DNA of 59,487 nt. It comes from a virus. Both the position numbers and the translations under genes were made by a program. Location: the IMG/VR virus record IMGVR_UViG_3300027896_005002, positions 1-59,487 of that record; one strand, written 5' to 3'. A model generated the notes under the pieces. The model was given only the letters and a program-made list of their open reading frames with translations. It was not told the origin of the DNA and made no database searches. This document shows, one piece after another, positions 1 through 56,526 of the stretch. Every line of letters begins with the position of its first letter. The stretch's first letter is position 1.

Positions 1-3000
1 CTTATGCCACTATAACCTGACAATCCCGAATATCCTGATGTACCTATACCCGAATAACCTGATTGTCCACTATAACCAGATATGCCCGAATAACCACTTT
101 GACCCGAATATCCTGATGATCCTTGACCAGAATACCCTGATATTCCTGAATAACCAGATGCACCTTCACCTGAATAACCAGATTGTCCTGAATAACCTGA
201 TGTTCCTACACCACTATAACCACTTTGTCCAGAATATCCACTTATACCTGAATAACCACTATGCCCAGAATATCCACTAATTCCTTGAGGTCCTGAAGGT
301 CCTGGAGCTCCACTTAAAGCAACTTCCCAAGTTGAATAAGTTCCTGATCCTGTAGTAAGAGTTATATTTACAACTAATGATCCTGTCCCAAAATCATAAG
401 ATGAAATTGATCCCTCCATCTTATTTGAACTATCATAAGCTATAATAATAGTCTGACCTATTGATAAAGCTAATCCTGCTTCAACAGTTAAATTTTGAAC
501 TCCCGTTCCAATAGTTAATGTAGTAGTTGAAGAAGTAGTATATCTATCACCTTCAAGTCCTGAATAACCTGAAGTACCTAAACCAGAATAACCACTAATA
601 CCTGAATATCCACTCTGTCCTGAATATCCTGAAATACCACTATATCCTGAATTTCCTGAATATCCACTTTGTCCTAATTCTCCTGAATATCCTGATGATC
701 CAGAATCACCTGAATATCCACTCGATCCAGAATACCCTGATGCTCCAGAATATCCACTTATACCTGAATAACCAGATGACCCAGGATTATCGCCACTAAA
801 TCCTGAATATCCACTAACACCCAATCCTGAATAACCACTAATACCTGAATATCCACTAACACCCAATCCTGAATAACCACTATATCCCAAACCTGAATAT
901 CCACTAATACCTGAATAACCGCTATATCCCAAACCTGAATATCCACTAATACCTGAATAACCGGATTGTCCTTGACTTCCTGATACACCTTGTTGTCCTT
1001 GTAAGAATATTATCCACGATGCAAAAGATCCAGATCCACTAATATTACTAACACTAACTGTCATATTTGGATGACTATATGCAGTAATACTACCTTGCAT
1101 ATAATTATTTAAATTTACTGAATAAGAAATGCTAACTCTCTGACCAACAGTAAATGATAAAGAATTTGCTCCATCTAATACAAAACTCTGAGTAAGAAAA
1201 CTTATTGTCATTGAAGTAGTAGATGTTCCATAAAAATTAGAACTTATTCCACTATATCCACTAAGTCCTGAAATTCCAGAATAACCACTTTGTCCTGAAT
1301 AGCCTGAAGATCCAGGATTATCACCACTAAATCCTGAAATTCCACTATACCCTGATGATCCGGGATTATCACCACTAAATCCTGAAACTCCACTATATCC
1401 ACTTTGTCCTGAATATCCTGATGATCCAGGATTATCACCACTAAATCCTGAAACTCCACTATATCCACTAAGACCACTGTATCCCGAATGACCTGACAAA
1501 CCTGAATATCCGCTTCGACCTGAATATCCGCTTCGACCTGAATATCCAGATACTCCTAATTCACCTGAATATCCTGATTGTCCAGAATATCCAGATATTC
1601 CTGAATAGCCTGACATTCCAGAACTACCAATTCCTGAATAGCCTGATTCACCTGAATATCCAGACGCTCCAGAATAACCCGATGTTCCTATTCCAGAATA
1701 TCCTGAAGTACCTACACCAGAATATCCTGAAATTCCGGATTGTCCTTGACTTCCTGATACACCTTGTTGTCCTTGTAAGAATATTATCCACGATGCAAAA
1801 GATCCAGATCCACTAATATTACTAACACTAACTGTCATATTTGGATGACTATATACAGTAATACTACCTTGCATATAATTATTTAAATTTGCTGAATAAG
1901 AAATACTAACTCGTTGTCCGACAGTAAATGATAAAGAATTTGCTCCATCTAATACAAAACTCTGAGTAAGAAGACTTATTGTCATTGAAGTAGTAGATGT
2001 TCCATAAAAATTAGAACTTATTCCACTATATCCGGATGACCCTGAATATCCGCTTTGACCTGAATAGCCTGAAATTCCAATTCCAGAATATCCACTTGCG
2101 CCAATTGTTCCAGAATAACCACTTACACCAACTTCTCCTGAATAACCGCTTACACCAACTTCTCCTGAATATCCTGAAACTCCACTATATCCACTTTGTC
2201 CTGAATAACCTGATGATCCGGGATTATCACCACTAAATCCTGAAACTCCACTATATCCACTTTGTCCTGAATATCCTGATGATCCAGGATTATCACCACT
2301 AAATCCTGAAATTCCACTATACCCTGAAATTCCACTATCACCAGAATATCCGGAAATTCCACTATAACCGGATGTTCCTACTCCAGAATACCCTGATGTT
2401 CCTACTCCAGAATACCCACTTATACCACTATAACCTGACAATCCTGAATATCCACTAATTCCACTATAACCGGATGTTCCAATACCTGAATATCCACTAA
2501 CGCCTATTTCTCCCGAATAACCTGATGTACCTACACCAGAATATCCTGACATTCCAGAATAACCAGACATTCCTGAATATCCACTTATTCCACTATATCC
2601 TGACGATCCAATGCTACCTGAATATCCACTTTCGCCAATTGTTCCTGAATACCCTGAAGTACCTACACCAGAATACCCTGAAGTACCTACACCAGAATAT
2701 CCCGACATTCCACTATATCCTGATCGACCACTATAACCCGATATTCCACTATATCCTGAAACGCCACTATAACCTGATATTCCACTGTATCCTGATGTAC
2801 CGATGCCAGAATACCCACTAATACCTATTTGACCAGAATATCCACTAACACCCGAACCTGAAAAACCAGAATATCCTGATCGACCACTATAACCTGAATA
2901 CCCTTTTTGACCTTCTATTGATACTAACCAATTTGAATATGTACCTGATCCCTGAATTGTATCAACATTAACTGTTAACAATCCAGAACCATTATTATAA

Positions 3001-5843
3001 TTTGTTATTTGACCAAACATATTATTATTAGCATCATAACTAATAACAATATATTGTCCTGAAATTAATGACAATCCCAAATCAACTGTAAAGGTCTGAA
3101 TTCCCAAATTAATCGTCATTGTATCTGATGATGATGTATTATATTTATCCGATTTTCCTGAATAACCTGACAATCCTGAATAACCTGAAAGACCAGATGA
3201 CCCTGACAAACCACTTATTCCAGAATAACCTGACCGACCAGAATAACCCGATTGTCCTGAATATCCACTAAATCCTGAATTTCCACTGTATCCTGAAGCA
3301 GCCTGTCCTGAATACCCAGATTGACCTTGACTACCCATTTGACCAGAATATCCCGAATTTCCTGAATATCCTGATGATCCAGGATTATCACCTGAAAAAC
3401 CTGATAGTCCACTATATCCTGATCCTCCTGAATATCCACTCTGTCCAGAATATCCACTTCTACCTGAATAACCTGATGATCCTGACAGTCCACTATATCC
3501 TGAAGCAGCCTGTCCAGAATATCCTGAAATTCCTATTCCTGAATATCCTGAAACTCCACTATATCCTGACGTTCCTGACATACCAGAATATCCTGATTGT
3601 CCTGAATAACCTGATGATCCAGGATTATCACCACTAAATCCTGAAACTCCACTATACCCTGAAGAACCACTCAGTCCAGAATAACCACTAATACCTGAAT
3701 ATCCACTTATGCCAGAATAACCACTATTGCCGGATTGTCCAGAATACCCTGACATTCCAGAATATCCACTTATACCAAAACCAGAATATCCTGATGTTCC
3801 AGAATATCCTGAAACACCAGAACCACTATATCCTGAAACACCAGAATAACCACTGCGTCCTGAAGTTCCTGATAATCCACTATAACCAGAAATTCCTGAA
3901 CTTCCAGAATAACCTGAAAATCCTGATTGACCTGAATATCCACTTACACCACTATATCCCGAAACACCAGAATAACCAGAAATTCCTGAATAACCTGATG
4001 TGCCACTTCCACTATAACCTGACTTTCCTGACCATCCACTCATTCCACTATAACCACTAATTCCAAAATCCCCAGAATAACCACTATATCCTGAAATGCC
4101 TGAATAGCCTGAAATACCGCTATATCCCGAAAATCCTGATAATCCTGATCGACCACTATAGCCAGAACTTCCTGAATTACCGCTACCACCACTATATCCT
4201 GAAACTCCAGAATACCCTGATTGTCCAGAATAACCTGATACTCCAGAATACCCTGAATATCCACTCCGTCCACTATAACCGGATTGTCCTGAATAACCTG
4301 AATTACCAATAGCACCAGAATAACCTGATGTTCCACTATACCCCGAATATCCTGAAGTCCCTGAATATCCAGAATAACCGCTTCTACCACTATATCCGCT
4401 TCTACCACTATATCCTGATTGACCTGAATATCCGCTACTTCCAGATATTCCAGAATATCCTGATGTTCCACTACCTGATATTCCTGAATAACCTGAATAT
4501 CCACTTCTACCACTATACCCTGAACCACCGGAATAACCACTATTTCCTATTGCACCAGAATATCCACTACTTCCCGATATTCCAGATTGTCCAGACAATC
4601 CACTATATCCTGATTGTCCACTCAGTCCTGATCGTCCCGAATATCCACTTATACCTGAATATCCTGATTCTCCGTCAATACCATCAATACCTGAATATCC
4701 TGAATTTCCAGAAGCCCCAGAATATCCACTTAAACCTGGCCTACCTGACCATCCACTTATTCCACTTCCTGATGCCCCTGAATATCCACTTAAACCTGAA
4801 TAACCTGAACGACCACTATATCCACTTACTCCAGAATATCCTGAAATTCCCGAATATCCTGACAATCCACTATAACCTGATTGTCCACTTAATCCTGATC
4901 TTCCAGAATAACCACTTATTCCTGTAGGTCCAGGAGCAGCACTTAATGACACATTCCAATTACTATATGTTCCAGAACCAATAATTGACGTTACATTAAC
5001 TACGAAATAACCATTTACAGGATTGTAAACAACAACATTGCCTTTCATACTATTACTTGCATCATAAACTATTAAAATTTCTTGACCAATTGAATACGCT
5101 AATTGTGTGCCAATTGTTAATGTTTGAGATCCTGTACCAATTGTTAGAGTCGATGATGATGTTGTTGTGTATCTATCACCCATTATTCCAGAATATCCAC
5201 TATACCCAGAATATCCAGAATATCCACTATGATTGACAATAATTTCTCTTCTACGAGGAAAATGTTGAGCAAAACTATAAACTTCAACGTGAATTAAATC
5301 ACTGTTACCATGTTGATCAATACCAAAAAACTTTAATACTGTATTTGTATTAATAATAATTGGTGAAACATATAGAATTGAAGCTATAGTTGGTACAGAT
5401 CCATCTAATGTATAATAAATACTTGTATTTTGTTTGTCAGAAGTTAACGTTATTTCTTGTGTAGAAACGAACGTTCCTCCGTGAGGAATTGCAATTACAT
5501 GAGGTTTTACAGTATCAGTCGTTACAATTGCAAATGAATAATTATCAGTGTATATAACATTAAGACCATCTTTGACATTAGAATCTATAGTAATAGTTGA
5601 TGCTACAGGAAATAAATTTGTATGTGCTATATAAACATTATATCCATGAACTACAGGTGTAATTGTTCCTGAATAAATAGGCGACTGAAATACACCGTCA
5701 ATAATAGCATCTATAGAATTTATTTTGACATTCAAAGTTGTTATAAGAATTGTTGTGTCAGTGCGAATTTCAAAATATACAGGCGATGTTTCTGGAACGC
5801 CTGTTGCACCTGAATCTGGTGATCTACTTTGGAAAGTTATCAT
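1..5843 (-). CDS. Giant collagen-like / GYSG-repeat fibre protein, 3'-partial (>1947 aa, continues beyond window start)
   Basis: Seen in sequence: minus-strand ATG at 5843-5841, which is 2 nt below the TAA stop of the preceding gene. Translation begins MITFQSRSPDSGATGVPETSPVYFEIRTD. It continues through an Ig-like region and a chitobiase-C/Fn3-like motif (SIYYTLDGSVPT). From about residue 215 it becomes (GYSG/GxSG)n tracts with collagen-like APGPTG spacers. Five ~75-aa beta-sandwich modules (TLTIGTGSQtLtIGT...GSGTYSnWnV) interrupt the repeats. Spot translations at 3-56, 5780-5843 and around 300-540 are all in this frame (plus-strand triplets starting at positions divisible by 3). All five minus-strand ORFs the track lists in 1..5800 lie in the adjacent frame, and none is listed in this one. 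That is what one uninterrupted ORF running off the window edge would produce. I did not check every codon for stops by hand. Confidence 0.7.
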   Translation of the reverse strand, partial: MITFQSRSPDSGATGVPETSPVYFEIRTDTTILITTLNVKINSIDAIIDGVFQSPIYSGTITPVVHGYNVYIAHTNLFPVASTITIDSNVKDGLNVIYTDNYSFAIVTTDTVKPHVIAIPHGGTFVSTQEITLTSDKQNTSIYYTLDGSVPTIASILYVSPIIINTNTVLKFFGIDQHGNSDLIHVEVYSFAQHFPRRREIIVNHSGYSGYSGYSGYSGIMGDRYTTTSSSTLTIGTGSQTLTIGTQLAYSIGQEILIVYDASNSMKGNVVVYNPVNGYFVVNVTSIIGSGTYSNWNVSLSAAPGPTGISGYSGRSGLSGQSGYSGLSGYSGISGYSGVSGYSGRSGYSGLSGYSGASGSGISGWSGRPGLSGYSGASGNSGYSGIDGIDGESGYSGISGYSGRSGLSGQSGYSGLSGQSGISGSSGYSGAIGNSGYSGGSGYSGRSGYSGYSGISGSGTSGYSGISGSSGYSGQSGYSGRSGYSGRSGYSGYSGTSGYSGYSGTSGYSGAIGNSGYSGQSGYSGRSGYSGYSGVSGYSGQSGYSGVSGYSGGSGNSGSSGYSGRSGLSGFSGYSGISGYSGISGYSGYSGDFGISGYSGMSGWSGKSGYSGSGTSGYSGISGYSGVSGYSGVSGYSGQSGFSGYSGSSGISGYSGLSGTSGRSGYSGVSGYSGSGVSGYSGTSGYSGFGISGYSGMSGYSGQSGNSGYSGISGYSGISGYSGLSGSSGYSGVSGFSGDNPGSSGYSGQSGYSGMSGTSGYSGVSGYSGIGISGYSGQAASGYSGLSGSSGYSGRSGYSGQSGYSGGSGYSGLSGFSGDNPGSSGYSGNSGYSGQMGSQGQSGYSGQAASGYSGNSGFSGYSGQSGYSGRSGYSGISGLSGSSGLSGYSGLSGYSGKSDKYNTSSSDTMTINLGIQTFTVDLGLSLISGQYIVISYDANNNMFGQITNYNNGSGLLTVNVDTIQGSGTYSNWLVSIEGQKGYSGYSGRSGYSGFSGSGVSGYSGQIGISGYSGIGTSGYSGISGYSGVSGYSGISGYSGRSGYSGMSGYSGVGTSGYSGVGTSGYSGTIGESGYSGSIGSSGYSGISGYSGMSGYSGMSGYSGVGTSGYSGEIGVSGYSGIGTSGYSGISGYSGLSGYSGISGYSGVGTSGYSGVGTSGYSGISGYSGDSGISGYSGISGFSGDNPGSSGYSGQSGYSGVSGFSGDNPGSSGYSGQSGYSGVSGYSGEVGVSGYSGEVGVSGYSGTIGASGYSGIGISGYSGQSGYSGSSGYSGISSNFYGTSTTSMTISLLTQSFVLDGANSLSFTVGQRVSISYSANLNNYMQGSITVYSHPNMTVSVSNISGSGSFASWIIFLQGQQGVSGSQGQSGISGYSGVGTSGYSGIGTSGYSGASGYSGESGYSGIGSSGMSGYSGISGYSGQSGYSGELGVSGYSGRSGYSGRSGYSGLSGHSGYSGLSGYSGVSGFSGDNPGSSGYSGQSGYSGVSGFSGDNPGSSGYSGISGFSGDNPGSSGYSGQSGYSGISGLSGYSGISSNFYGTSTTSMTISFLTQSFVLDGANSLSFTVGQRVSISYSVNLNNYMQGSITAYSHPNMTVSVSNISGSGSFASWIIFLQGQQGVSGSQGQSGYSGISGYSGLGYSGYSGISGYSGLGYSGYSGLGVSGYSGISGYSGLGVSGYSGFSGDNPGSSGYSGISGYSGASGYSGSSGYSGDSGSSGYSGELGQSGYSGNSGYSGISGYSGQSGYSGISGYSGLGTSGYSGLEGDRYTTSSTTTLTIGTGVQNLTVEAGLALSIGQTIIIAYDSSNKMEGSISSYDFGTGSLVVNITLTTGSGTYSTWEVALSGAPGPSGPQGISGYSGHSGYSGISGYSGQSGYSGVGTSGYSGQSGYSGEGASGYSGISGYSGQGSSGYSGQSGYSGISGYSGQSGYSGIGTSGYSGLSGYSGI
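961..1260 (-). repeat. Copy 1 of a ~300-bp near-identical intragenic direct repeat (the beta-sandwich module plus flanking collagen-like linker)
   Basis: Seen in sequence: 961-1260 and 1735-2033 align with about 8 mismatches over ~300 bp (for example tatgcag vs tatacag, and gctaactctctgacc vs actaactcgttgtcc). Confidence 0.85.
1735..2033 (-). repeat. Copy 2 of the ~300-bp near-identical intragenic direct repeat (offset ~774 bp from copy 1)
   Basis: Seen in sequence: same alignment as the previous feature. Confidence 0.85.
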
Positions 5844-5845
5844 AT

Positions 5846-6283
5846 TTAATCCTTAATTGCAAAAATATCATTAAAAGCCTGAATTAGTCTGTCTTCCAGT
5901 GATGACAAAATATATTTGTCATACAATTTTTTTTGAATTGCTAGCCAATCAATATTACAAACTTTATCATCAAACAAATGATCATAATAAATTTTTCTAC
6001 TAGTATTAAATGACAAAAAAGGCGCATTTTCATTAATTGTATGAATTTTGATATCATTTGCATTTAAGAAATCTAGTGCATTTTGTAGTACCTGACCACT
6101 TCGACATGTCCATAAAATAGTGTGAAAATTATCGTAAATCCAGTTTATAACTTCTTTTGCATATGGAAGTAAAACAAAATTCTTACTATGAACGTCTTCA
6201 TTCAATTGAACAATCGTGCCGTCAAAATCAATTGAAATAATAATTCTGTGTGTGTCTTTAAACAAATTTCCATTTGTATCCAT
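5846..6283 (-). CDS. HAD-superfamily phosphatase-like protein (possible 5'(3')-deoxyribonucleotidase / PNK-phosphatase type)
   Basis: Seen in sequence: HAD motif I, IIISIDFDGTIV (DxDGT), lies close to the N-terminus when the ATG at 6283 is used. The ORF track's longer form starts at a TTG at 6331. The C-terminal part overlaps the GIY-YIG gene end by 26 nt. The family assignment is inferred from motif I alone. Confidence 0.5.
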   Translation of the reverse strand: MDTNGNLFKDTHRIIISIDFDGTIVQLNEDVHSKNFVLLPYAKEVINWIYDNFHTILWTCRSGQVLQNALDFLNANDIKIHTINENAPFLSFNTSRKIYYDHLFDDKVCNIDWLAIQKKLYDKYILSSLEDRLIQAFNDIFAIKD

Positions 6284-6998
6284 AAGCACTTTTACTCTTA
6301 TTTCTACAACAATTAATAATGTTAATTGCAAGTATATTTAATGATTCTTTAATTTTCATTGCATTATCCCAAATTTTTATAAACTCATTTTTTTTCGTTA
6401 ATTGTATTATAGACTTTGAATATTTATCACACGTTAATTTATTAACATCATGCCATTTTTTCAAATTACTAATATAACCATTTTCATATAAATTTTTCTG
6501 TGCATCTGAACAATGCTTTTTTGATTCATCTGAATATTTTTTATGTTTCGATCCTAATTGTACTCTACTTTTTAATTCATTTCTCCATTGTGGATGTTTT
6601 TTACCTAATATTGCTAATCGTAATTTTTCTTTAGTTTCTTTGCTTTTCTTAACACCTAATGTCGATCCTGCTATTTTTGAAACATTATAAATCGGTTGTA
6701 ATAAATCTAAATAATGTTGTTCTCTACTTATTAATTGACTTACATCATTTACTTCCTCCAATATTTCAACTTTAAAAGACTCTATAGAATATTTATTAAA
6801 TGCTCTTTGTAAAATAATAGAATGATGTTTATTTTTATTAAGCATTCTTATATGCAAATTCATTCTATGCCGTAAATTTTTTGTTGATCCTATATAAACT
6901 TTATCTGATATCTTATTTTTAATGCAATAAACACATGAACAAATTGATAATGTTTTAAATAAATCTACATTCCAAAAATCTTTTAAATCTTGTATCAT
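6258..6998 (-). CDS. Free-standing GIY-YIG homing endonuclease (I-TevI/Seg-like) with NUMOD3-type DNA-binding repeats
   Basis: Seen in sequence: CVYCIKNKISDKVYIGST ... HSIILQRAFNKYSIESFKVEILEE ... REQHYL closely parallels the I-TevI catalytic domain (GIYQIKN..KVYVGSA ... HSSIKLQRSFNK ... ILEE). NUMOD3-like repeats follow (GSTLGVKKSKETKEKLRLAILGKKH; GSKHKKYSDESKKHCSDAQK). I take the ATG at 6998 as the start; the ORF track extends to a TTG at 7019. Confidence 0.8.
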   Translation of the reverse strand: MIQDLKDFWNVDLFKTLSICSCVYCIKNKISDKVYIGSTKNLRHRMNLHIRMLNKNKHHSIILQRAFNKYSIESFKVEILEEVNDVSQLISREQHYLDLLQPIYNVSKIAGSTLGVKKSKETKEKLRLAILGKKHPQWRNELKSRVQLGSKHKKYSDESKKHCSDAQKNLYENGYISNLKKWHDVNKLTCDKYSKSIIQLTKKNEFIKIWDNAMKIKESLNILAINIINCCRNKSKSAYGYKWKFV

Positions 6999-7031
6999 CT
7001 GAATAACCGTCAAAATCAATATGTTTAAGGT

Positions 7032-7463
7032 TTAATTTTTTACATTTTTTATAGTTAATAATTTGACAAAATCAACAGATTCATGAATTCCAACAGCACC
7101 TAAACCTGCAACAAAACCAGCAATTAAACTAGCAGTTAAATTCATACCAGTTAGTAAATTATTTATAATACCACTAAGAATACCAAGAATCATTGCAATA
7201 TATGGTTTTGCTGCTTTCATTTTTGGTGTATTAAAAAAAGCAGCAATTGGACCGAAATTTGTCAGCGAGATTAATAATTTAATTACAACTGCTGATACAA
7301 TTAACCACGTTACATCACCGGCTTTTAATCCTTTAATCGCATTAATCACATCACTAGTGTTTTTAACTAAAGAATCAACAGTTACTTTAGTTGAATCGAC
7401 TGCCAACACGACAAAAGCTGCAACAAAAATAAATGCTGTAAATAAGACTACTTTCAGCTTCAT
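7032..7463 (-). CDS. Small membrane protein with 3-4 predicted TM helices, possible holin-like
   Basis: Seen in sequence: ATG at 7463 preceded by a GGAGGA Shine-Dalgarno. Hydrophobic stretches are VVLFTAFIFVAAFVVLAV, WLIVSAVVIKLLISL, YIAMILGILSGIINNLLTG and LIAGFVAGLGAVGI. The holin role is inferred from size, topology and position; there is no recognisable endolysin in the window. Confidence 0.4.
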   Translation of the reverse strand: MKLKVVLFTAFIFVAAFVVLAVDSTKVTVDSLVKNTSDVINAIKGLKAGDVTWLIVSAVVIKLLISLTNFGPIAAFFNTPKMKAAKPYIAMILGILSGIINNLLTGMNLTASLIAGFVAGLGAVGIHESVDFVKLLTIKNVKN

Positions 7464-7622
7464 ATGTCCTCCTACCTATGTTATTGATTTTGACGGTTTG
7501 TATAACTTTTGAACTTGCGCAACAATAAATACTACTATGTTGGCATCCTGAACTATTATTGTTTTATTAACTTTTTATTAATTTTAGAGGAGATAATTAT
7601 AGCGGAATATTAAAGAAGTCGC

Positions 7623-8108
7623 CTAATTTTTAACAACCCAATCTGTAGGTGTTAATACTTTTTCATTTTTTCTATGTTCATATTCTGCAAAAATTTTGCC
7701 TTTATCTTTGTCTGACTTAATTATTACATCAACATCCCAACCACTTGGCAAACAATATCGTAACTTTTCTTGAGGACCATCTAAATTATCTGGATAAAAG
7801 CAATCAAACATTTCTTTTGATATATTTGTTTCAGATTCTTGTTGTAATGGTAAATGTTTTACACCAAGACTATATTGCGGGTCTTTTCCTGATTCTTTTG
7901 TCATTCTAATTCTAGCATAAGCAATAGATTTGTCGCAATTTTTAACATCTCTAAGTTTGCCCTGTTTTATGATTTTAGGTTCAATACTTAAACAATCTTT
8001 TGGCAATTCTCGTAATTCTAGTCTTTTCTCCTGTTCTTTATGAACTTCACCATTCATATCCTGAGCAAATTTTATAAATTCTTTTTGAATTGTTGACAAA
8101 TGATTCAT
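7623..8108 (-). CDS. Hypothetical protein; N-terminus (MNHLSTIQKEFIKFA) is paralogous to the N-terminus of the plus-strand gene at 58881
   Basis: Seen in sequence: complete ORF of 161 aa. MNHLSTIQKEFIKFAQD in this protein aligns with MNHLATIQSEFVKEARK in the 58881 protein. Confidence 0.5.
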   Translation of the reverse strand: MNHLSTIQKEFIKFAQDMNGEVHKEQEKRLELRELPKDCLSIEPKIIKQGKLRDVKNCDKSIAYARIRMTKESGKDPQYSLGVKHLPLQQESETNISKEMFDCFYPDNLDGPQEKLRYCLPSGWDVDVIIKSDKDKGKIFAEYEHRKNEKVLTPTDWVVKN

Positions 8109-8235
8109 TTTAATTCATTCTCCCAAAGGATCTTCAAAATGTATTTTAGGACAAAGAAATTCGATAATAAATGAAACTATTATAATATAACAAATCATAC
8201 CAATAACCCATTTTAAAAATACAGGTATTGTCATA

Positions 8236-9153
8236 TTAGCCTATCAAAATTCTATTGAATCGTGTGCCCGTCCAACGTTTAATGTTTTGTCCGGTCGTCC
8301 AAGGTCCAAGAGCTGCTCCTCTTGAATATGTGTATCGATCTTGTCTTAATCCAACAGTACATAGAATTCTCTTTTTTGCCATTTCTAATTGTTTATCAAT
8401 AGTTCCTTGTAGACTGTTAGCAAAACCTGAATATTTGTCGGATCTTCTAACATCAAGACTTATACCTGCAAGTGAATAATTAAATTCTTCCCCTGCCCAT
8501 AAAATGGCTAAATCATATAATGCATATACTTGAGCCTCAAGAAGCATTAATGGTTCCCAAGCCGATGGATATGTTAACAAATTATAATCGGTTGCCGGAG
8601 GAAATAGATTAACATAATTTGATGCATCTTCAAGATGATTAGCTAAACTATCATCTCTCCATTTATATCCACGAGTTTGCGTAAAACCAGCTATTTCTTG
8701 TTCAGATGATGGTGGTGAAAAATGATAATCTGCATCAGGATTTACATCTCTTAATTTTACTCTTAATTTATGAATTAGTCGTTTAATAGACTCAGGATAT
8801 TCTTCATCTAATATAGTTAGCTTTGAAACAATTTCAAATTCTTCTTTATTTGCAAGTGATATTGATGTTGGTATTTCTTTTACATTCCAAACTATTTTGT
8901 GCATACCAATATTTTCAGTATCAGGAATAACCCATGGAGCAAAATAACTTCCAACAGCAAATTTAATAGGAATTCTATTATTGCCACCAATTAAAACATC
9001 TGTTCCAGAAGTTGAGTCATACAAATCAAAAGTGATAGAATAAGGATCTTTTAGATTACCATTTCTATCATACACAAAAACGTTCAGATTATCTTTTGAT
9101 GTCGTATCACCTCGTCTTATTGCATTCATATATTCTCCTAAGCGCAGCCACAA
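8236..9153 (-). CDS. Hypothetical virion-associated protein; N-terminal beta-rich domain paralogous to 10059..10475
   Basis: Seen in sequence: NGNLKDPYSITFDLYDSTSGTDVLIGGNNRIPIKFAVGSYFAPWVIPDTENIGMHKIVWNVK in this protein aligns with NGEQLTDPYYISYTIFDYTTGSKEIIRQTINSIPMKFDIGSYFVPLRIDPLIFRVGRHIIQWNIK in 10059..10475. Confidence 0.5.
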   Translation of the reverse strand: MWLRLGEYMNAIRRGDTTSKDNLNVFVYDRNGNLKDPYSITFDLYDSTSGTDVLIGGNNRIPIKFAVGSYFAPWVIPDTENIGMHKIVWNVKEIPTSISLANKEEFEIVSKLTILDEEYPESIKRLIHKLRVKLRDVNPDADYHFSPPSSEQEIAGFTQTRGYKWRDDSLANHLEDASNYVNLFPPATDYNLLTYPSAWEPLMLLEAQVYALYDLAILWAGEEFNYSLAGISLDVRRSDKYSGFANSLQGTIDKQLEMAKKRILCTVGLRQDRYTYSRGAALGPWTTGQNIKRWTGTRFNRILIG

Positions 9154-9680
9154 CCAGATAACACTTGAAAATTAATGCCTGTACTTATTTGTCCTACGCC
9201 ATAATATAAAGTATTACATGCTCCTGATTGTTTTGCTGCACCATCAACTGTGTTTGATCCTCCTGTCGAAGCAATATCTGAACCTATACAATTTTCACTT
9301 CTTGTTCTATAAACACTAAATGTATTAGCTTTTGAGATTGTTTGTCCAAATTGTGTGTCTGTTATTTCCCAAACAATAGTATATTGCCCCGGATAAGTTA
9401 TTGGTGTCCATATATAATTAGCATAATATTGTCCAGTTGCATATCTTGATGCTATTTGATTTGTTTGATATTTTACAGGTTTATTTTTTGGACATGTAAT
9501 ACTATAACGAACCATATAAGGATCAAATAAAATATTATTAAAATATGTAAAAATAGACATGTACTTCACAACATTTGGAGCACTACTTTGAAAACCTTTT
9601 ATTTGTGATCCAAAAAAGTTTAAAATAGCTTGACCAGTTCCATTACTGGTGCAAATTATTTCAGAACCATTATAAATCAT
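9138..9680 (-). CDS. Hypothetical protein (180 aa, Gly/Cys-rich C-terminus SGCGCA)
   Basis: ORF with 16-nt overlap to the downstream gene; no recognisable motif. Confidence 0.4.
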   Translation of the reverse strand: MIYNGSEIICTSNGTGQAILNFFGSQIKGFQSSAPNVVKYMSIFTYFNNILFDPYMVRYSITCPKNKPVKYQTNQIASRYATGQYYANYIWTPITYPGQYTIVWEITDTQFGQTISKANTFSVYRTRSENCIGSDIASTGGSNTVDGAAKQSGACNTLYYGVGQISTGINFQVLSGCGCA

Positions 9681-9681
9681 A

Positions 9682-10062
9682 TTAGTGAGGTACCCTATAA
9701 TATAAAGAATTTAAAGTTAAAGTATCACCAGTAGAATAATTAACACCAACAAGTTCAATATCTCCGCCACTGCCTTCAATAGTAACAGTTCCAGATATTT
9801 TAACCACTGACAAATTATCAAGTATTTGAAATTTAGTTACTGTTCCGGTAGTTGTAACAGTTGCACTTTTTGGAAAACTATTTGCAATAGCTTGACCACT
9901 GACTGACAGCGCAAATGCTACTACATCTAAAAGTATAGTTGCAACTGTTAAATTTGCATCTGTTAAAAAAATTATTGATCCAGCATTTAATTCACCACAA
10001 ACTGCATCAGCAATTAAATTTTTTGTAATCATATCATGTTCTATCATATTTATCCCTTTCAA
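9682..10062 (-). CDS. Hypothetical protein (126 aa)
   Basis: ORF tightly packed against its neighbours (it abuts 9138..9680 and overlaps 10059..10475 by 4 nt); no recognisable motif. Confidence 0.4.
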   Translation of the reverse strand: MKGINMIEHDMITKNLIADAVCGELNAGSIIFLTDANLTVATILLDVVAFALSVSGQAIANSFPKSATVTTTGTVTKFQILDNLSVVKISGTVTIEGSGGDIELVGVNYSTGDTLTLNSLYYRVPH

Positions 10063-10475
10063 ACAACAGCCGGTAATTCTGTAAATTTAACTAATACCGG
10101 ATTATTAATTGGTTCTGTCAATGTCGTATCTGGATATGTTGATCTGCAAAATTCACCAGCATAAAAAGCCTGTCTTGAAACATAAAAATCTTGTAAATAA
10201 GTATTAATCGCTGAATCATAATATTGTTTAATATTCCATTGTATAATATGTCGACCAACTCTAAATATTAGAGGGTCAATTCTCAATGGCACAAAATATG
10301 ATCCAATATCAAACTTCATTGGAATACTATTTATAGTCTGTCTAATAATTTCTTTAGATCCTGTTGTATAATCAAAAATTGTGTAAGAAATATAATAAGG
10401 ATCAGTCAACTGTTCACCATTGAAAATATAAATATGTAAATCATTTTTTGATAGTATTTTTCCTAAATAAATCAT
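10059..10475 (-). CDS. Hypothetical virion-associated protein, paralog of the 8236..9153 N-terminal domain
   Basis: See the alignment given for 8236..9153. Confidence 0.45.
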   Translation of the reverse strand: MIYLGKILSKNDLHIYIFNGEQLTDPYYISYTIFDYTTGSKEIIRQTINSIPMKFDIGSYFVPLRIDPLIFRVGRHIIQWNIKQYYDSAINTYLQDFYVSRQAFYAGEFCRSTYPDTTLTEPINNPVLVKFTELPAVV

Positions 10476-10477
10476 AT

Positions 10478-10825
10478 TTATTCTTTCGTAAACTTAACAA
10501 CTAATCCTCCAGCAAAATAACCATCAGATAATACTTGAAATTCTCTTTCTGATGTCATGTCATAATGTGTATCTGGGTTTTCCCCTCTTGCATGAACATA
10601 ATATTTTTGATTAATTAATGCTGTTGATGGTATTAGCCATTGCATTGCATAAAGCCCTGTATCCAAATGTGTTAAGCTTGTTAATGGTACAACTAATACT
10701 TCTGTACTACCATTAAAATATGTAACAGTATAAGCTGCATTAAACACATCAATTAGTTGGCCTGTGTCATCCATAAATGTAAATTCAAAGTCTACAACGT
10801 CATTTCTTTTATAAATTGATGCCAT
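10478..10825 (-). CDS. Hypothetical small beta-rich protein (115 aa)
   Basis: ORF; no diagnostic motif. Confidence 0.4.
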   Translation of the reverse strand: MASIYKRNDVVDFEFTFMDDTGQLIDVFNAAYTVTYFNGSTEVLVVPLTSLTHLDTGLYAMQWLIPSTALINQKYYVHARGENPDTHYDMTSEREFQVLSDGYFAGGLVVKFTKE

Positions 10826-10894
10826 AATACCCTCACTTAAATTGATAATACAATATGTTATCTATTATTAAAAAATCAAAACAAAATAAAATCG

Positions 10895-11644
10895 TCATAC
10901 ATTACGAACATTCTCTATTTTATTATAAGTACTTATGCAATTCCTCAATCCATCATCTATTTTAATTTTTGCTTGCCAATTTGGTACTATTACATTTTTA
11001 TTATCATCTGCAAAATCATTTTGCATTTCTATAACATTTTCAATATTTTCAACAAAAGACAATGGCAATTCAAGCATCATTAATATTTTTCTAATAATAT
11101 TATATTCACTTATTTTAATATTAGTCTTTGCTACATATGTAATGCCGCTTTTTCCATGATTTAAAATGCATTCTATCGCGGAACAACAGTCACTAATGTA
11201 TATCCAATCATACATACTTGAACCATCGTTTTTAATCATCACTAATTCTCTACTAACTGCATTAATAATAGATTTTGGAATAAATTTTTGAAGTTGTTGT
11301 CGAGGACCATAACATCGAGCAAGTCTAATAACTATATCAGACTGCACAGGATCATCATTCCATGATAAAACTTGAATAAATCTTTTTACATTACATTTAA
11401 TTTGTTGTGGAATGAAATTAATAACAATATCAATGTCATATAGTTTAAATAAATGCTCTGATTTATTAATATCTATCTTTTCAAATACAACTGTATCTCT
11501 TACTTTATCTAAATTTTTTGTTTCTTCCTTATCAATAACAATGATTCTATCATTATTATATTTAGCATTTAATAATTCAACAAAATGAGACCCGACAAAA
11601 CCCATTCCACCAATTACTAAAATTGTTTTATTGTAATTTCTCAT
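10895..11644 (-). CDS. NAD(P)-dependent epimerase/dehydratase-like protein (short-chain dehydrogenase/reductase fold), apparently truncated
   Basis: Seen in sequence: N-terminal Rossmann motif ILVIGGMGFVGSHFVELL (GxxGxxG). ARCYGPRQQLQKFIPK resembles the (V/N)YGPxQ..EKLIP segment that follows the catalytic YxxxK in dTDP-glucose 4,6-dehydratase and GalE-like enzymes. At 249 aa it is about 60-100 aa shorter than those enzymes, and I could not locate a clear YxxxK. Confidence 0.55.
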   Translation of the reverse strand: MRNYNKTILVIGGMGFVGSHFVELLNAKYNNDRIIVIDKEETKNLDKVRDTVVFEKIDINKSEHLFKLYDIDIVINFIPQQIKCNVKRFIQVLSWNDDPVQSDIVIRLARCYGPRQQLQKFIPKSIINAVSRELVMIKNDGSSMYDWIYISDCCSAIECILNHGKSGITYVAKTNIKISEYNIIRKILMMLELPLSFVENIENVIEMQNDFADDNKNVIVPNWQAKIKIDDGLRNCISTYNKIENVRNV

Positions 11645-11788
11645 TCTTTTTTTCTTTTATTTTAATAGCGCCAACTACTTCCATATTAGTCTTCACTTTA
11701 TCATTATTCATCATTTTATTACTTTGATTCATAAGATTTTTGGCATCTTTTTTTCTTTCATGTAAATGTAATGAATATTCAATTTCAT

Positions 11789-12775
11789 TCATAATCCCTC
11801 CATTCTCAAATTTTCAAATAATATCTTTTGCTTATCTGTTAATTGTATTGGAATATCAACAATAAACTCAATAATCTCATGTCCTCTAACTTTAGTTATT
11901 CTGTCCGGTAAACCTTTATTTTTAATAATTAATTGTCTAACATTTATAATATTTGGACTTACCATTATTTCATTATCATTTTCACATAACATCTTAATAT
12001 TAATTTTACAACCTAATACAGCTTGTGATAATGACAAATGTGCAGTATAAATAATATCTTGCCCTCGTCTAGCAAAATATTCATGAGATTTAATTTTCAA
12101 TTGTACTACTAAATTTCCACAAAGACCGTTATTCTCACCACAATGACCATAATATTTTAATATTATAATATTCTCATTTACTCCCACATCTATATCTAAT
12201 GTAGCAATCGAATCTTTTAATACTCTACCGGTCCCAGAACAATTATTACAATCTAGCTTTAGAGCATGCCCTGACCCATTACATTTTGAACATATAATAA
12301 CGTTATTTATAGTAAAATATCCCATTGTTTTAGTATTAAATAGCTTTCCTTGACCTTTACAATTGGGACATATTTGTTTTTCAAAATTTGTCGTGCCACT
12401 GCCAGAACAACAAACACATTTTTCATATTTTTTATATTTTATTGTTTTCTTACAACCTTTTAACACTTCCTCAAACGTTAAGTCTAAATTAATTGCTATA
12501 TCTTTGCCTGTTGATCCTCGACGAATTGTTGAAAATGAAAAATTTGAAAAATCAAATTGCTGTTGTAAATCATATTGTTGTCTTTTGATGGGATCTTTAA
12601 GAACATCATATGCTGCAGTTACTTCAGTGAATTTTGATGCAGCTTCGCTACTATGATTTTTATCAGGATGGAAATCTTTTGCGAGTTTAAAATATGCAGA
12701 TTTTATTTGACTATCAGTCGCATCCTTAGATAATCCAAGTATTGAATAATAATCTTTATTAACAACCCTAGCCAT
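11789..12775 (-). CDS. dnaJ: DnaJ-type (Hsp40, type I) co-chaperone with J domain and four CxxCxGxG zinc-finger repeats
   Basis: Seen in sequence: J domain DYYSILGLSKDATDSQIKSAYFKLAKDFHPDKN with the HPD motif. Zinc-finger repeats are CVCCSGSGT, CPNCKGQGK, CSKCNGSGH and CNNCSGTGR. A C-terminal substrate-binding region follows. I take the ATG at 12775 as the start; the ORF track extends to a TTG at 12787. Confidence 0.8.
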   Translation of the reverse strand: MARVVNKDYYSILGLSKDATDSQIKSAYFKLAKDFHPDKNHSSEAASKFTEVTAAYDVLKDPIKRQQYDLQQQFDFSNFSFSTIRRGSTGKDIAINLDLTFEEVLKGCKKTIKYKKYEKCVCCSGSGTTNFEKQICPNCKGQGKLFNTKTMGYFTINNVIICSKCNGSGHALKLDCNNCSGTGRVLKDSIATLDIDVGVNENIIILKYYGHCGENNGLCGNLVVQLKIKSHEYFARRGQDIIYTAHLSLSQAVLGCKINIKMLCENDNEIMVSPNIINVRQLIIKNKGLPDRITKVRGHEIIEFIVDIPIQLTDKQKILFENLRMEGL

Positions 12776-12783
12776 ATCTACTG

Positions 12784-13302
12784 TCAATCAGAATCAGACG
12801 TGATATGACACATCGTTTTCAATGACCTGGTGGCATCCGTATAATCAGACGCATTTACAATACATTTCTTATCAGAAATATTATTGAAATATCCTAATTT
12901 TAATTCTAAAATTGATAAATTAGACGACGTTGGATCAAATACAAAAATAGTTTTTGAATTTTTATGACTAACAGATTCAATACTACATTTTTTTGTTTTT
13001 AAATATGAAGCAAAATATAAATCAGGTGTAATAATTTTATTTTCATCATTATCAAGATGACATAATGTTTTTAAAGCCCTAATAGCATCAGCGAAAGCAA
13101 TAGCTATTACAGAACATTTTTCTGAATGGTCATTATTGAAATATCCATGTTTTAATTCTTGAGCTGATAATTTAGAATCACTGATATCAAAAACAAATGT
13201 TGTTTTCGATCCTTCTCTTTCAATGTCAACTATCTGGCAGGATTTTGCTTTCAAATAGGCGGCAAAATATAAATCAGATGTCGATAATTTTTGTTCATTC
13301 AT
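12784..13302 (-). CDS. Hypothetical protein made of two tandem ~80-aa homologous domains
   Basis: Seen in sequence: DLYFAAYLKAKSCQIVDIEREGSKTTFVFDISDSKLSAQELKHGYFNNDHSEKCSVIAIAFADAIRALKTLCH and DLYFASYLKTKKCSIESVSHKNSKTIFVFDPTSSNLSILELKLGYFNNISDKKCIVNASDYTDATRSLKTMCH are clearly homologous. Confidence 0.5.
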   Translation of the reverse strand: MNEQKLSTSDLYFAAYLKAKSCQIVDIEREGSKTTFVFDISDSKLSAQELKHGYFNNDHSEKCSVIAIAFADAIRALKTLCHLDNDENKIITPDLYFASYLKTKKCSIESVSHKNSKTIFVFDPTSSNLSILELKLGYFNNISDKKCIVNASDYTDATRSLKTMCHITSDSD

Positions 13303-51594: not shown

Positions 51595-52818
51595 TTAAAC
51601 AGAAACAGTTTTTCTACTTTTATTTGATATCTCAATATTTTTCTTTAAAGAATCTTTAATATTTTCATTATCACTATTTCTATATTTTATCCTTAAATTA
51701 TCATCATGATCAATATGAATTAATGAAGTGAAAGCAAATGAATGTTCATACAATCCAATATCAATAAACTTATGAAAAATATCTTCATCTTCATATCCAT
51801 ATCCATTCATCGACTCATTGAACCCATTTACCCTTTTAAAATTTGATAATTCAACAAAAAATGTACCTAACGTATGTCTATCATTAGGCAACCCTCCTCT
51901 AAAAAAACAATTTTTTACTTCAAAAATATTTAAATTACTTGCAATTTTTACATCTGAATCTATAAACATTACATACTTTGTAGTAACAAATTTAGCTCCA
52001 AAATTTCTTGATTTAGATCCATGAAATTCTTTTTGTCCATCTACTCGTATAATTTTTACCAATTTATTGAGCTCTTCAATTTCTTGCAAATTTATATCAC
52101 TAGACCAATCAACGACAATAATATTAGTAAAACCATAATTTAACCATGATTTATAACTCTGTAACAGGAAACTTTCTCGATTCATGCACACAGTAACTAA
52201 AGTAACATCATCATTATTAAAATTAAAATTAATTTTTGGATAATTAGATAAAAATTCATGACCTTCAAATTTAACTAAAATTTTATTATTATCTTGTCTA
52301 GTAAAACAAATATCTTGATTTGAAATTTGCTGCCATAATCCTGCAATATTATTTAATGTTAAACCAATAGCAAGATGTTTAAAATATCCTTCAGGTATTA
52401 TTTGAAATCTATGCTTATACTTAGCTAATAAACTAGACATGTGTCGTTTATCAAAAACAGAAAAATTATTTATAATTTCATACACTAATTCACGATCATT
52501 ATGACTTATATACATAACACATTCATAAGGACCTTTAAATAAATAGGATAACTCAGGATTAAAATCAAACCATTTAGTAATAATTATGTCAGAATCCATC
52601 CATATAGAATCAGGATTATCCCTCAAATATTGTAGTCGAAATAAAGAACTAGCAAATCGAATGTCTGAAAATTTAGACAAATCAAAATTTTGTGGAAACT
52701 TAGTAATTAATTTATATTGAACATTCTGTGGTTTATCATTTTTAATTTTATCCATGAAAAATTTGTAACATTCTGGAATTTTATCACTATTGAAAAACTG
52801 TACAATCTTCATGTTCAT
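51595..52818 (-). CDS. Two-domain glycosyltransferase (N-terminal DXD sugar-binding GT32-like domain; C-terminal GT2/GT7-like domain)
   Basis: Seen in sequence: ASSLFRLQYLRDNPDSIWMDSDIII matches the Gly_transf_sug pattern (R.L.yL...GG/ds.yiDtD). C-terminal VTLVTVCMNRES...NIIVVDWSSD...VMFIDSDV...GYGYEDEDIFHK is GT2/beta-4-GalT-like. Confidence 0.6.
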   Translation of the reverse strand: MNMKIVQFFNSDKIPECYKFFMDKIKNDKPQNVQYKLITKFPQNFDLSKFSDIRFASSLFRLQYLRDNPDSIWMDSDIIITKWFDFNPELSYLFKGPYECVMYISHNDRELVYEIINNFSVFDKRHMSSLLAKYKHRFQIIPEGYFKHLAIGLTLNNIAGLWQQISNQDICFTRQDNNKILVKFEGHEFLSNYPKINFNFNNDDVTLVTVCMNRESFLLQSYKSWLNYGFTNIIVVDWSSDINLQEIEELNKLVKIIRVDGQKEFHGSKSRNFGAKFVTTKYVMFIDSDVKIASNLNIFEVKNCFFRGGLPNDRHTLGTFFVELSNFKRVNGFNESMNGYGYEDEDIFHKFIDIGLYEHSFAFTSLIHIDHDDNLRIKYRNSDNENIKDSLKKNIEISNKSRKTVSV

Positions 52819-55107: not shown

Positions 55108-56526
55108 CTAAGAAATTTCTACAATATCTGTTACGTCATATGCACTTGTCTGAAGTGTATCTCCAGTACCATGAAATACATTCTCAATAAAATTAAGATT
55201 TGCACTATATCTCGAAATTGTTTGTGTATCAGCATTATATATTAACAATGACTGATATCTAGGATCGTGAATGTCACCAACATTACTAACTTTTAAACAA
55301 CGAATAGTTTTTGCAATAATATCCGTATCACCTTCATTTACAAAACTACTATTAACTCTCAAAATTTTTCGACCATTATTAACAAAAATATATCCATTTG
55401 GATGTTTTACAATCGCATTAAAAGCTGTATTCATAAATTCATTTGGCCACGTTGGTAATTCACCAATTACAGTTTGTGTAGTAAAAACAGAAAAGTTTGT
55501 TGATTCAATTGTTTGAAATAAACTACCAACAGCATAACCGCCATTAATAGGGCGCACATTTGGTAAATAAACAGTCCAAGGAAAATGTGTTCCTGAACCA
55601 TTTGTTGATGTAACATTTACTACTAAATTACCATTTATATGATTATATGAAGTAATAGTCCCTTGCATATTATTAGATACATCGTACTTAATAATAATAT
55701 TTTGCCCTGCAGAAAATGCTAAACCTGTTCCTATAACAAGTGATTGACTGCCAGTTCCAATAGTTAAATGCGTCGATGATGATGTTGTTGAACTAGTTGC
55801 ATAAGTAGGACTTGAAACAACTCTAGCAGCTCCACTTACTATAAAACTATTTGAAGCAAATCCTCTACAAATTCCCGTCGGTCTAAACCACGCAGTTTGT
55901 ATATTGTTTAAATTTCCACTAACTTTTACACTAACTAAATTTGTTGTAAGTCTTTCAATTCTAATAAAAGGACCACTATGATCTGGTAAATAAACAGACC
56001 AAGAAGAATATGTTCCTGAACCATTTATTGATAATACATTAACAACTAATTGACCATTTATCGGATTATAAGAAGTAATCATTCCTTGCATGTTAATTGA
56101 TGGATTATTAAAATATTCAATAATAATATTTTGTCCGACTGAATATGACAAACTCGTTTGTATAACTAGAGATTGACTACCCAATCCAACAGTTAACGAT
56201 GTTATTGATGTTGATGATGGTGGTTCTCCTGCACCCATGCCAACTACATACAAATCATTTGTAATATCATCATACATTATAGCATATGGTTTACCTATAG
56301 TATTTGCAGTACTATGCTCTGAATGATACGTTAAATTGGGATAAAGTTTTACAACTCTTGAATGATCACAAACAAACCAATATCCACTATTTGCAACACC
56401 CCATGGATAATTTAATGTACTATTAGTCTCACCTTTAACACCAAACGTACCAAAACTATCACCTACAACACCATTATTTACGGCTTTAACAACATGACAT
56501 TTAGTTCTTTGTGTAAAATGAATCAT
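55108..56526 (-). CDS. NHL-repeat fibre protein carrying two copies of the beta-sandwich module also found in the giant GYSG protein
   Basis: Seen in sequence: LTVGLGSQSLVIQTSLSYSVGQNIIIEYFNNPSINMQGMITSYNPINGQLVVNVLSINGSGTYSSWSVYLP and HLTIGTGSQSLVIGTGLAFSAGQNIIIKYDVSNNMQGTITSYNHINGNLVVNVTSTNGSGTHFPWTVYLP. These align with TLTIGTGSQTLTIGTQLAYSIGQEILIVYDASNSMKGNVVVYNPVNGYFVVNVTSIIGSGTYSNWNVSL from 1..5843. Confidence 0.55.
   Translation of the reverse strand: MIHFTQRTKCHVVKAVNNGVVGDSFGTFGVKGETNSTLNYPWGVANSGYWFVCDHSRVVKLYPNLTYHSEHSTANTIGKPYAIMYDDITNDLYVVGMGAGEPPSSTSITSLTVGLGSQSLVIQTSLSYSVGQNIIIEYFNNPSINMQGMITSYNPINGQLVVNVLSINGSGTYSSWSVYLPDHSGPFIRIERLTTNLVSVKVSGNLNNIQTAWFRPTGICRGFASNSFIVSGAARVVSSPTYATSSTTSSSTHLTIGTGSQSLVIGTGLAFSAGQNIIIKYDVSNNMQGTITSYNHINGNLVVNVTSTNGSGTHFPWTVYLPNVRPINGGYAVGSLFQTIESTNFSVFTTQTVIGELPTWPNEFMNTAFNAIVKHPNGYIFVNNGRKILRVNSSFVNEGDTDIIAKTIRCLKVSNVGDIHDPRYQSLLIYNADTQTISRYSANLNFIENVFHGTGDTLQTSAYDVTDIVEIS

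Follow-up and report, generated by a model that had tools for sequence, protein, structure and literature searches.

The DNA analyzed here, 59,487 nucleotides (nt) of the IMG/VR virus record IMGVR_UViG_3300027896_005002 (this whole stretch is called the window below), carries at its position-1 edge, on the minus strand, a giant gene for a collagen-like protein. The gene is real, and its repeat is canonical collagen Gly-X-Y of the form (Gly-Tyr-Ser)(Gly-x-Ser), hereafter the GYS repeat, with a DNA period of 9/18 nt. On balance, we favor the view that it encodes a very long homotrimeric collagen-like fiber of a phage-G-like megaphage, whose most likely place is on the virion, where it would stand out as a tail fiber or other adhesive filament. 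The parts of this view differ in strength: a collagen-type trimeric filament is very likely, attachment of the protein to the virion is probable, and a specifically receptor-binding tail fiber is possible at somewhat less than even confidence. In kind the protein is familiar, a collagen-like phage fiber, and it is not categorically new; its scale, its proline-free Tyr/Ser chemistry and its use of a very large, unnamed family of beta-barrel nodes are unusual.

An uninterrupted frame in collagen register

The preliminary description of this DNA proposed that a minus-strand frame is open from the ATG at 5843 to the window edge, and named an in-frame stop as evidence to the contrary. Full translation from this ATG to nt 3 gave 1,947 codons, all of them sense, with the frame running off the edge. 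The composition of the gene stretch predicts stops at 7.7% of codons, and log10 of the probability of a stop-free run of this length is -67.8 (P ~1e-68). The remaining five frames contain 83-252 stops each, and 200 shuffles yielded open stretches of no more than 130 codons. Reading on from in-frame stops just upstream, this ATG is the first start codon met, and the upstream HAD-phosphatase-like gene terminates (stop codon 5846-5848) 2 nt before it, which suggests coupled translation of the two genes. As had also been noticed, the list of open reading frames (ORFs) shows only wrong-frame shadows over the gene, of up to 199 amino acids (aa); the gene itself is missing because the lister omits ORFs that run off the source.

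Codon use for Gly, Ser and Tyr equals that of the other window genes, and serine codons are drawn from both families (TCN 285, AGY 133), at ratios resembling those in the rest of the genome. Since the repeat copies are mostly 60-70% identical in DNA and both serine families are used, Gly and Ser are conserved at the protein level, as befits an old, ameliorated gene and not recent DNA homogenization. Two other assemblies match parts of the window at 100% identity, one (L001, JGI 3300003852) at 2211-11192 and one (L002, run SRR5272259) at 3802-8977. Both break inside the giant gene, at 2211 and 3802 respectively; the 3.6 kb and 2.0 kb of it that they cover give no sign of repeat-number variation, although all three assemblies may share one site or population.

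The register of the repeat is that of collagen. Glycine autocorrelation is 3.2x expectation at lag 3, high at lags 6, 9 and 12 and depleted at 1, 2 and 4, while tyrosine peaks at lag 6. Gly and Ser recur at every third residue and Tyr at every sixth, and not in a four-residue GYSG unit with Tyr at every fourth position and Ser at every other, as first described. The 12-nt DNA periodicity reported at that stage was likewise not found: base identity over aa 305-898 peaks at 9, 18, 27 and 36 nt (0.50-0.54) and is at background (0.247) at 12 nt, and none of the 64 rows returned by Tandem Repeats Finder has a period of 12. Its 24-, 42- and 66-nt rows correspond to units of 8, 14 and 22 residues, each with one break inside. 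The match to Pfam Collagen (PF01391, E=3e-126) bears out the initial identification of a giant, window-truncated collagen-like protein.

The non-globular part comprises 1,343 residues with 407 regular Gly-X-Y triplets, among which are 42 runs of at least three triplets, the longest of 31. Ser occupies the Y position in 380 of the 407 triplets (93%); the X position is Tyr in 172 (42%), followed by Ile (44), Gln (31), Ser (25) and Val (23). Tyr and non-Tyr triplets alternate, a Tyr triplet being followed by another only 11 times and by a non-Tyr triplet 133 times. Proline makes up 1% of the repeat, and Arg, Lys, Asp and Glu together ~3%. The composition that stabilizes prokaryotic triple helices, with Pro in X and Thr or Gln in Y, or with many charged pairs, is absent. 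In prokaryotic collagens Pro normally takes up 19-31% of X and Thr 32-48% of Y (PMC8968730), and the departure of the Tyr/Ser composition from this norm had been recognized correctly.

The register is interrupted by 30 G-x-G breaks (x mostly Ser, Ile, Val or Leu), eight GDNPG, two GQAASG and three GG. The GPxG interruptions mentioned in the preliminary description are nearly absent; the few Pro triplets lie right after the first (APGPTG) and the fifth (GAPGPSGPQG) of the globular modules described below. Where near-identical 300-bp duplications had been reported, one 300-nt pair was found (952-1251 and 1726-2025, 96% identity), which spans modules 4 and 3. Further recent duplications are 66-nt GDNPG units, also at 96%, and short perfect units of 18 and 24 nt.

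Barrel modules and relatives of the repeat

The collagenous segments are separated by five modules of ~80 aa, which are 30-58% identical to module 1 (modules 3 and 4 are nearly identical to each other) and whose conserved positions include S, Y, G-S-G and W. All five fit an 82-position family profile (A2) at E 1e-26 to 5e-35. They had been described as beta-sandwiches; their number stands, but their fold appears to be different. An AlphaFold2 model, made on a self-built alignment of 15 window modules and homologues, is a closed six-stranded beta-barrel with a mean predicted local distance difference test score (pLDDT) of 92.9, and the modules are thus predicted to be barrels and not Ig/Fn3 sandwiches. 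A Foldseek search of the model against the PDB gave nothing below E=0.01. The best shapes were the crown barrel at the N-terminus of F1/V1-ATPases and one chain from the baseplate of phage JBD30, the predicted barrel resembling phage tail-tip and tailspike neck domains. By sequence, no solved structure matched the module with E<0.3.

The Ig/Fn3-like head assigned to the N-terminus could be recovered for aa 120-195 only, since aa 1-113 have no family match and reach a pLDDT of about 30 in AlphaFold2. Compared with solved structures by sequence, the head gave a weak CHB_HEX_C match and nothing else. A tblastn search with aa 1-305 against 50,697 phage records returned no match, and a scan of viral contigs with the head domain found nothing. 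A paralogous CHB_HEX_C domain is present in the window ORF 49494-51437.

When 1.84 billion representative proteins were searched exhaustively with the profile, the module proved to belong to a family of 10,539 representative clusters (E<=1e-3), of which 6,043 reach E<=1e-10; an earlier word-indexed search had returned only 2 matches. The family includes proteins of up to 5,124 aa and up to 12 module copies per protein, and no model in Pfam, PHROG or NCBIfam covers it. One member (P0015) combines collagen and module behind a hydrophobic N-terminal leader, another (P0017) has tandem modules with minimal Gly-X-Y linkers, and a third (P0022) is a collagen-free giant with repeated YYT.DGS.PT motifs like those of the window protein's CHB_HEX_C domain. 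The 5,124-aa member (P0021), with a tandem module array inside, looks from its sequence like an RHS/YD-repeat toxin whose C-terminal part is Hint-like, and the module thus apparently also occurs outside collagen proteins and outside phages. In the 150 best-matching members, the collagen next to the module is mostly of the GPT, GxT or GxQ type, and Tyr is the most frequent X residue only in the window protein and the small proteins nearest to it (P0001, P0002). That GYS tracts fill the same architectural slots as classical prokaryotic collagen is the main argument for their having the same structure.

The phage reuses the module in several of its own proteins. A 472-aa paralogue (55108..56526, minus strand) holds two copies (E 1e-28 and 6e-30) and no collagen; the sequence in which they are set resembles that of the neighbor 54138-55088 and has no Pfam or PHROG match.

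The GYS chemistry itself was searched for with aa 1616-1947. Among 8,000 candidates scored, 404 proteins matched at E<=1e-10, so that the composition is not the oddity it was first taken for. Of the 116 matches listed, 114 have Ser as their most frequent residue at Y, and 77 have Tyr as the most frequent at X together with Ser at Y. All are of at most 581 aa and 85 triplets, with globular inserts between the stalk segments, some of which include the module. Domains of phage receptor-binding type occur among them, namely Mtd_N (P0165), the Peptidase_S74 intramolecular chaperone (P0206) and CBM_5_12 (P0180). Because the G-x-G breaks recur in these proteins and an SG[DA]NPG break is present in 10 of the 116 listed, both appear to be features of the GYS class. 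A 373-kb phage contig carries one GYS gene among four tandem collagen-like genes. The string 'GYSGYSG' occurs in none of the papers of the literature library searched.

The 3' end of the gene was also sought. An exact 40-mer from module 5 had no match in viral and metagenome contigs, and no GYS coding was found at the other end of the window, so the gene does not continue round a circle. A 30-mer from nt 21-50 gave a single, non-identical match, to the 36-kb contig Ga0209777_10001352 (L007), which starts inside a GYS gene and overlaps the window at 86% identity over ~200 low-complexity nt. The window protein's final 38 residues recur unchanged in the first L007 ORF (orf1), which goes on for ~510 residues: ~235 more of GYS collagen, six repeats of the form GDIYMQTxGxGxFxxLSQTxRxW...NGNIYA, and a short conserved tail. 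The best PDB sequence matches of this C-terminal part are designed six-bladed propellers (E=2.5e-4), with a weak Pfam NHL match, and it shares 33-41% identity (E=3e-30) with the N-terminal portion of the window ORF 49494-51437. The next gene (orf2) encodes another GYS collagen of 958 aa with three modules. Judged by its sequence, L007 comes from a related phage and not from the same one; it is a model for the missing end, not the answer.

Among GenBank phages, tblastn found the module only in a 735-kb huge phage (LR756501/LR756503). Its 2,816-aa (Gly-Thr-Ser)n protein resembles ours in being giant, in having Ser in Y, in sharing the module (47% identity) and in belonging to an uncultivated huge phage. 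It is complete, with globular N- and C-termini, and is unannotated and unstudied; it differs in having Thr or Ser and not alternating Tyr in X, one module and not five, and unrelated termini. In LR756501.1 the gene lies at 4593-13043 (plus strand) of the extracted locus L004, where shadow ORFs of 946 and 1,399 aa in the other strand and frames could be mistaken for genes. The small GYS proteins (P0165, P0180, P0206, P0223, and orf1 and orf2 of L007) have the same (GYS-GxS)n repeat, breaks and globular inserts. Those among the matches listed are several-fold smaller than the window protein, and the Mtd_N, S74 and CBM5/12 ends are not seen in its visible part.

With better known systems the resemblance is one of design. 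Collagen-like proteins of E. coli O157 prophages have been described (PMC3368898). Collagen-like phage tail-fiber and minor-tail proteins share with the window protein the Gly-X-Y stalk between globular domains, which trimerize in them and would do so here, and the role, putative here, of a phage structural protein; their length is a few hundred residues, their triplets contain Pro/Thr/Gln or charged residues, and there is no match outside the repeat, as against at least 407 triplets with Ser in 93% of Y and Tyr in 42% of X, 1% Pro and five barrel nodes. In BclA of the Bacillus exosporium, whose hydroxy-amino-acid Y position (Thr) is heavily O-glycosylated, repeat number sets the length of a prokaryotic collagen-like filament and a globular trimerizing domain nucleates the helix. 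BclA is GPT-rich and short, with a C1q-like C-terminal domain and an exosporium-targeting N-terminus, features absent from the visible window protein. Streptococcal Scl1/Scl2 and Legionella Lcl (NF038329, NF038330, NF046116) have the Gly-X-Y repeat in common, the match being limited to it. The giant protein scores 377.9 bits with the SclB model of NCBIfam (cut-off 325); membership of Scl2 was rejected, given a repeat-only match, no signal peptide or V domain, no LPXTG in the visible part, and a phage as the source. Collectins/C1q and type IV-like collagens offer the likeness of a stalk with three putative heads and of presumed flexibility through G-x-G breaks, but there is no sequence relationship, the hydroxyproline system is absent here, and the heads are modeled on L007.

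Genomic setting

All window genes lie on the minus strand, and the G+C content is about 30%. The head module comprises the large terminase (28447-30357), the portal (25034-27619), the prohead protease (22896-24581) and an HK97-type major head protein (19354-20226; phrog_2522, E=1e-68). The last is 52% identical to its counterpart in LR745208 (an uncultivated 485-kb phage), 48% to that of Bacillus phage G (497 kb) and 43% to that of Tunturiibacter phage Tunturi_5. Because the portal comparison agrees with these identities, the window can be assigned, by sequence comparison, to a phage-G-like megaphage; megablast of 20 kb against the 50,697 phage records found nothing. A look-up by neighboring genes gave a carrier contig of the 0.2-1 Mb size class. 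A giant-virus (Mimivirus-like) origin, considered for its AT-richness, collagen and glycosyltransferases, was ruled out by the HK97-type head, portal, terminase and likeness to phage G.

Sugar-related genes recur in the window: the glycosyltransferases at 16202-19261 and 51595-52818, a sugar-dehydratase-like gene at 10895-11644, and the HAD-phosphatase-like gene at the ATG. The first, a fusion protein, may point to virion glycosylation; at its position LR745208 has an unrelated ORF of 1,230 aa. The only PDB sequence match of the second is a weak one (E=0.007) to GalT1, a member of the streptococcal Fap1 serine-rich-repeat glycosylation pathway. The third (minus strand) resembles SDR sugar 4,6-dehydratases/epimerases, is only 249 aa long, and aligns with the profile at positions 1-82 and 165-237, as though it lacked the central part of the fold. 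The second glycosyltransferase belongs to a cluster at 43.8-56.5 kb, together with the two-module protein, a GYS-stalk protein and NHL/PKD/CHB_HEX_C proteins; of these, four consecutive large proteins (43844-51437, minus strand) with NHL, PKD and CHB_HEX_C_1 domains look like adhesin- or fiber-type proteins.

Other genes, likewise on the minus strand, were noted in passing. A complete DnaJ, with J, zinc-finger and C-terminal domains, is encoded at 11789-12787, and a Cpn10 co-chaperonin at 9393-9752 (minus strand) of the related contig L007; such phage chaperones might help to fold giant fibers. Two genes upstream of the giant gene lies a GIY-YIG homing-endonuclease gene (6258-7019) with a relative in the head region of LR745208 (31% identity). 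A radical-SAM/SPASM-domain protein (42188-43258) adjoins the putative fiber cluster, a 636-aa ORF (56589-58499) contains an intein splicing domain with an inserted HNH endonuclease (Pfam Intein_splicing E=2e-21), and a bacterial-type topoisomerase IA and full-length gyrases A and B follow each other at 33201-40491.

Table 1. Positions in the window of the giant gene, the parts of its product and possibly associated genes.
Feature	Position	Strand	Remarks
Whole visible coding sequence	3..5843	-	1,947 codons from ATG 5843; stop absent, 3' end beyond the window
AAGGA, Shine-Dalgarno-like site	5850..5854	-	6 nt upstream of the ATG
N-terminal region, aa 1-116	5496..5843	-	no hydrophobic signal-peptide-like stretch; no family match
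CHB_HEX_C_1 / Fn3_assoc beta-sandwich domain, aa 120-184	5292..5486	-	E=9e-18 / 4e-14; pLDDT 80-90
Collagenous segment 1, aa 207-224	5172..5225	-	6 triplets, GYS x4
Beta-barrel module 1 (predicted), aa 225-304	4932..5171	-	followed by Pro-containing triplets APGPTG
Collagenous segment 2, aa 305-898	3150..4931	-	594 aa, 201 Gly, longest unbroken run 31 triplets
Beta-barrel module 2 (predicted), aa 899-977	2913..3149	-	profile match
Collagenous segment 3, aa 978-1276	2016..2912	-	triplet count
Beta-barrel module 3 (predicted), aa 1277-1357	1773..2015	-	within 300-nt repeat 1726-2025
Collagenous segment 4, aa 1358-1534	1242..1772	-	three GDNPG breaks
Beta-barrel module 4 (predicted), aa 1535-1615	999..1241	-	within 300-nt repeat 952-1251
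Collagenous segment 5, aa 1616-1767	543..998	-	triplet count
Beta-barrel module 5 (predicted), aa 1768-1844	312..542	-	followed by GAPGPSGPQG
Collagenous segment 6, aa 1845-1947	3..311	-	cut by the window edge
Three GT2-like regions + S-adenosylmethionine (SAM) methyltransferase, 1,019 aa	16202..19261	-	directly downstream of the major head protein gene; putative link to the fiber
Paralogue, possibly associated, 431 aa	52833..54128	-	short GYS collagen stalk + large globular C-terminus; followed by a glycosyltransferase gene
GT2 + Glyco_transf_7C glycosyltransferase	51595..52818	-	directly after the 431-aa GYS-stalk gene

The proposed fiber and its alternatives

In the fiber that we propose, three chains would form a triple helix that takes in 1,343 or more collagenous residues, which at 0.286 nm per residue comes to ~384 nm, with the nodes extra. 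The five independently folding barrels would split this helix into six segments, like beads on a string. Three copies of each module would pack round the three-fold axis to form a node of trimerization and registration, at which helix zippering could restart after each segment and after the G-x-G and GDNPG breaks. The only Pro-rich triplets, APGPTG and GAPGPSGPQG, look like nucleation sites in their positions right after modules 1 and 5. In non-fibrillar animal collagens flexibility comes from frequent one-residue breaks, and such breaks would make this rod flexible as well.

With almost no Pro or charged residues in the repeat, stability would have to come from other sources, such as hydration of the serines, contacts of Tyr with Tyr or with the backbone, the nodes, or O-linked sugars that the glycosyltransferases of the window would add to Ser. 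Both Tyr and Ser would point outward from the triple helix, so that the rod would display a regular ladder of hydroxyls and aromatic rings, a surface that would suit weak multivalent binding of sugars, association side by side or cross-linking by oxidation; Tyr cross-linking and adhesion are putative. The serine ladder could also be a substrate for the phage's own glycosyltransferases, in parallel with the Thr glycosylation of BclA. The missing C-terminus, by analogy with L007, probably consists of more GYS collagen and then a six-bladed beta-propeller that would bind a ligand on the host surface, and the resulting layout would be collectin- or C1q-like, a stalk with three heads.

Several observations weigh against this reading. 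The triple helix is putative for a repeat so poor in Pro (1%) and in charges and so rich in Tyr (13%), and aromatic residues rank low in host-guest scales of triple-helix propensity. O-glycosylation of the fiber is a possibility to which the proximity of the genes alone points. No known fiber anchor was recognized: aa 1-116 gave no Pfam match, and aa 1-305 matched 0 PHROG families and no known virion or baseplate attachment domain. The families of the top PHROG matches of the whole protein (6320, 5073, 1806) are named tail fiber or collagen-like minor tail, but these matches, like those to NCBIfam, carry little functional weight because they are driven by the Gly-X-Y repeat alone. The C-terminal model is an analogy, since L007 is 86% identical over 200 low-complexity nt and its gene may be a paralogue rather than an orthologue. 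As to the setting, no recognizable tail, baseplate or sheath gene is present in the window, beyond whose edge the DNA downstream of the gene lies, and the immediate neighbors of the gene are non-structural (HAD phosphatase-like, GIY-YIG endonuclease, DnaJ and epimerase-like). Phage G and LR745208 share the head-gene order of the window and have no collagen gene near their head modules; a recent paper on phage G does not mention collagen.

The setting is compatible with a virion filament of another kind, one that does not bind receptors: head fibers, whiskers or a 'hairy' coat, serving to widen the capture radius or to shield, and anchored through the Ig-like/CHB_HEX_C region. On the same strand, ~13.5 kb upstream of the gene, is that of the major head protein; no tail genes intervene, and the window encodes several other PKD/NHL/CHB_HEX_C proteins. 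Ig-like and Fn3-associated domains are reportedly typical decorations of phage structural proteins. Hairy jumbo phages have been described (PMC5259590). We nevertheless regard this alternative as unlikely, for relatives with GYS stalks carry the tail-fiber-type domains Mtd_N and Peptidase_S74, the L007 homologue ends in a propeller resembling a binding head, and homology to known decoration proteins was not found.

The composition raises a different question, namely whether the Gly/Ser/Tyr region is a triple helix at all. With 172 GYS motifs, 1% Pro and very few charges it might instead be disordered, gel-forming or amyloid-like, the barrels being the sole folded parts; [G/S]Y[G/S] is said to be the low-complexity motif of FUS. 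It might also form a hexapeptide beta-solenoid, in view of the hexad pattern given by Ile, Val and Leu, which make up 37% of the non-Tyr X residues. The persistence of Gly at every third residue over 407 triplets, despite 30-40% DNA divergence of the copies, makes such structures quite improbable, as do the recurrence of the G-x-G (Ser, Ile, Val, Leu) and SG[DA]NPG breaks in other GYS proteins and the classical GPT/GxQ collagen that fills the same slots in homologues. The polar X residues (Gln, Arg, Ser, Thr, Asn, Glu) would, in addition, be unfit for a solenoid core.

Nor is the protein at all likely to act outside the virion, whether exported from the infected cell and deposited on the host or spore surface in mimicry of a BclA-like nap, or retained as an intracellular scaffold. 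The closest cultivated relative infects a spore-former with collagen-like glycoproteins on its exosporium, and the neighboring genes are non-structural. The visible part, however, has no signal peptide, anchor motif or BclA-type C1q-like domain, and the domains found in its relatives are of phage-fiber type. An assembly artefact, or a decaying runaway repeat devoid of function, might account for the breaks of short-read contigs at 2211 and 3802 and for the near-identical units of 18-300 nt, but is barely credible in the face of two independent assemblies that reproduce 3.6 kb and 2.0 kb of the gene at 100% identity, 1,947 stop-free codons, genome-typical codon use with both Ser families, and five modules that have diverged (30-58% identity) and yet all match their profile at E 1e-26 to 5e-35.

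The gene is among the largest collagen-like genes seen in a phage. The particle of phage G is described as measuring >0.6 um (PMC12484599), and the visible part of the window protein alone would make a filament comparable in length to that whole particle. Such genes are systematically lost by gene callers and short-read assemblers, as shown here by the two other assemblies that break inside it. It is conceivable, though we hold the odds to be low, that GYS/GxS collagens are a distinct way to build a triple helix with neither proline nor charge pairs, stabilized by a tyrosine ladder and phage O-glycosylation and held in register by barrel nodes, and that they serve megaphages as half-micrometer, sugar-binding 'fishing lines' ending in lectin-like propellers. 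Both components appear to be unstudied: the GYS/GxS triplet chemistry is apparently widespread in metagenomes, and the 80-residue beta-barrel node, predicted from its model, recurs in more than 10,000 representative clusters with no Pfam model of its own. If the GYS triple helix is true, it would be a collagen scaffold free of proline and of hydroxylation, with regularly spaced, cross-linkable tyrosines, and so of interest for biomaterials, and the barrel node would be a candidate portable registration domain.

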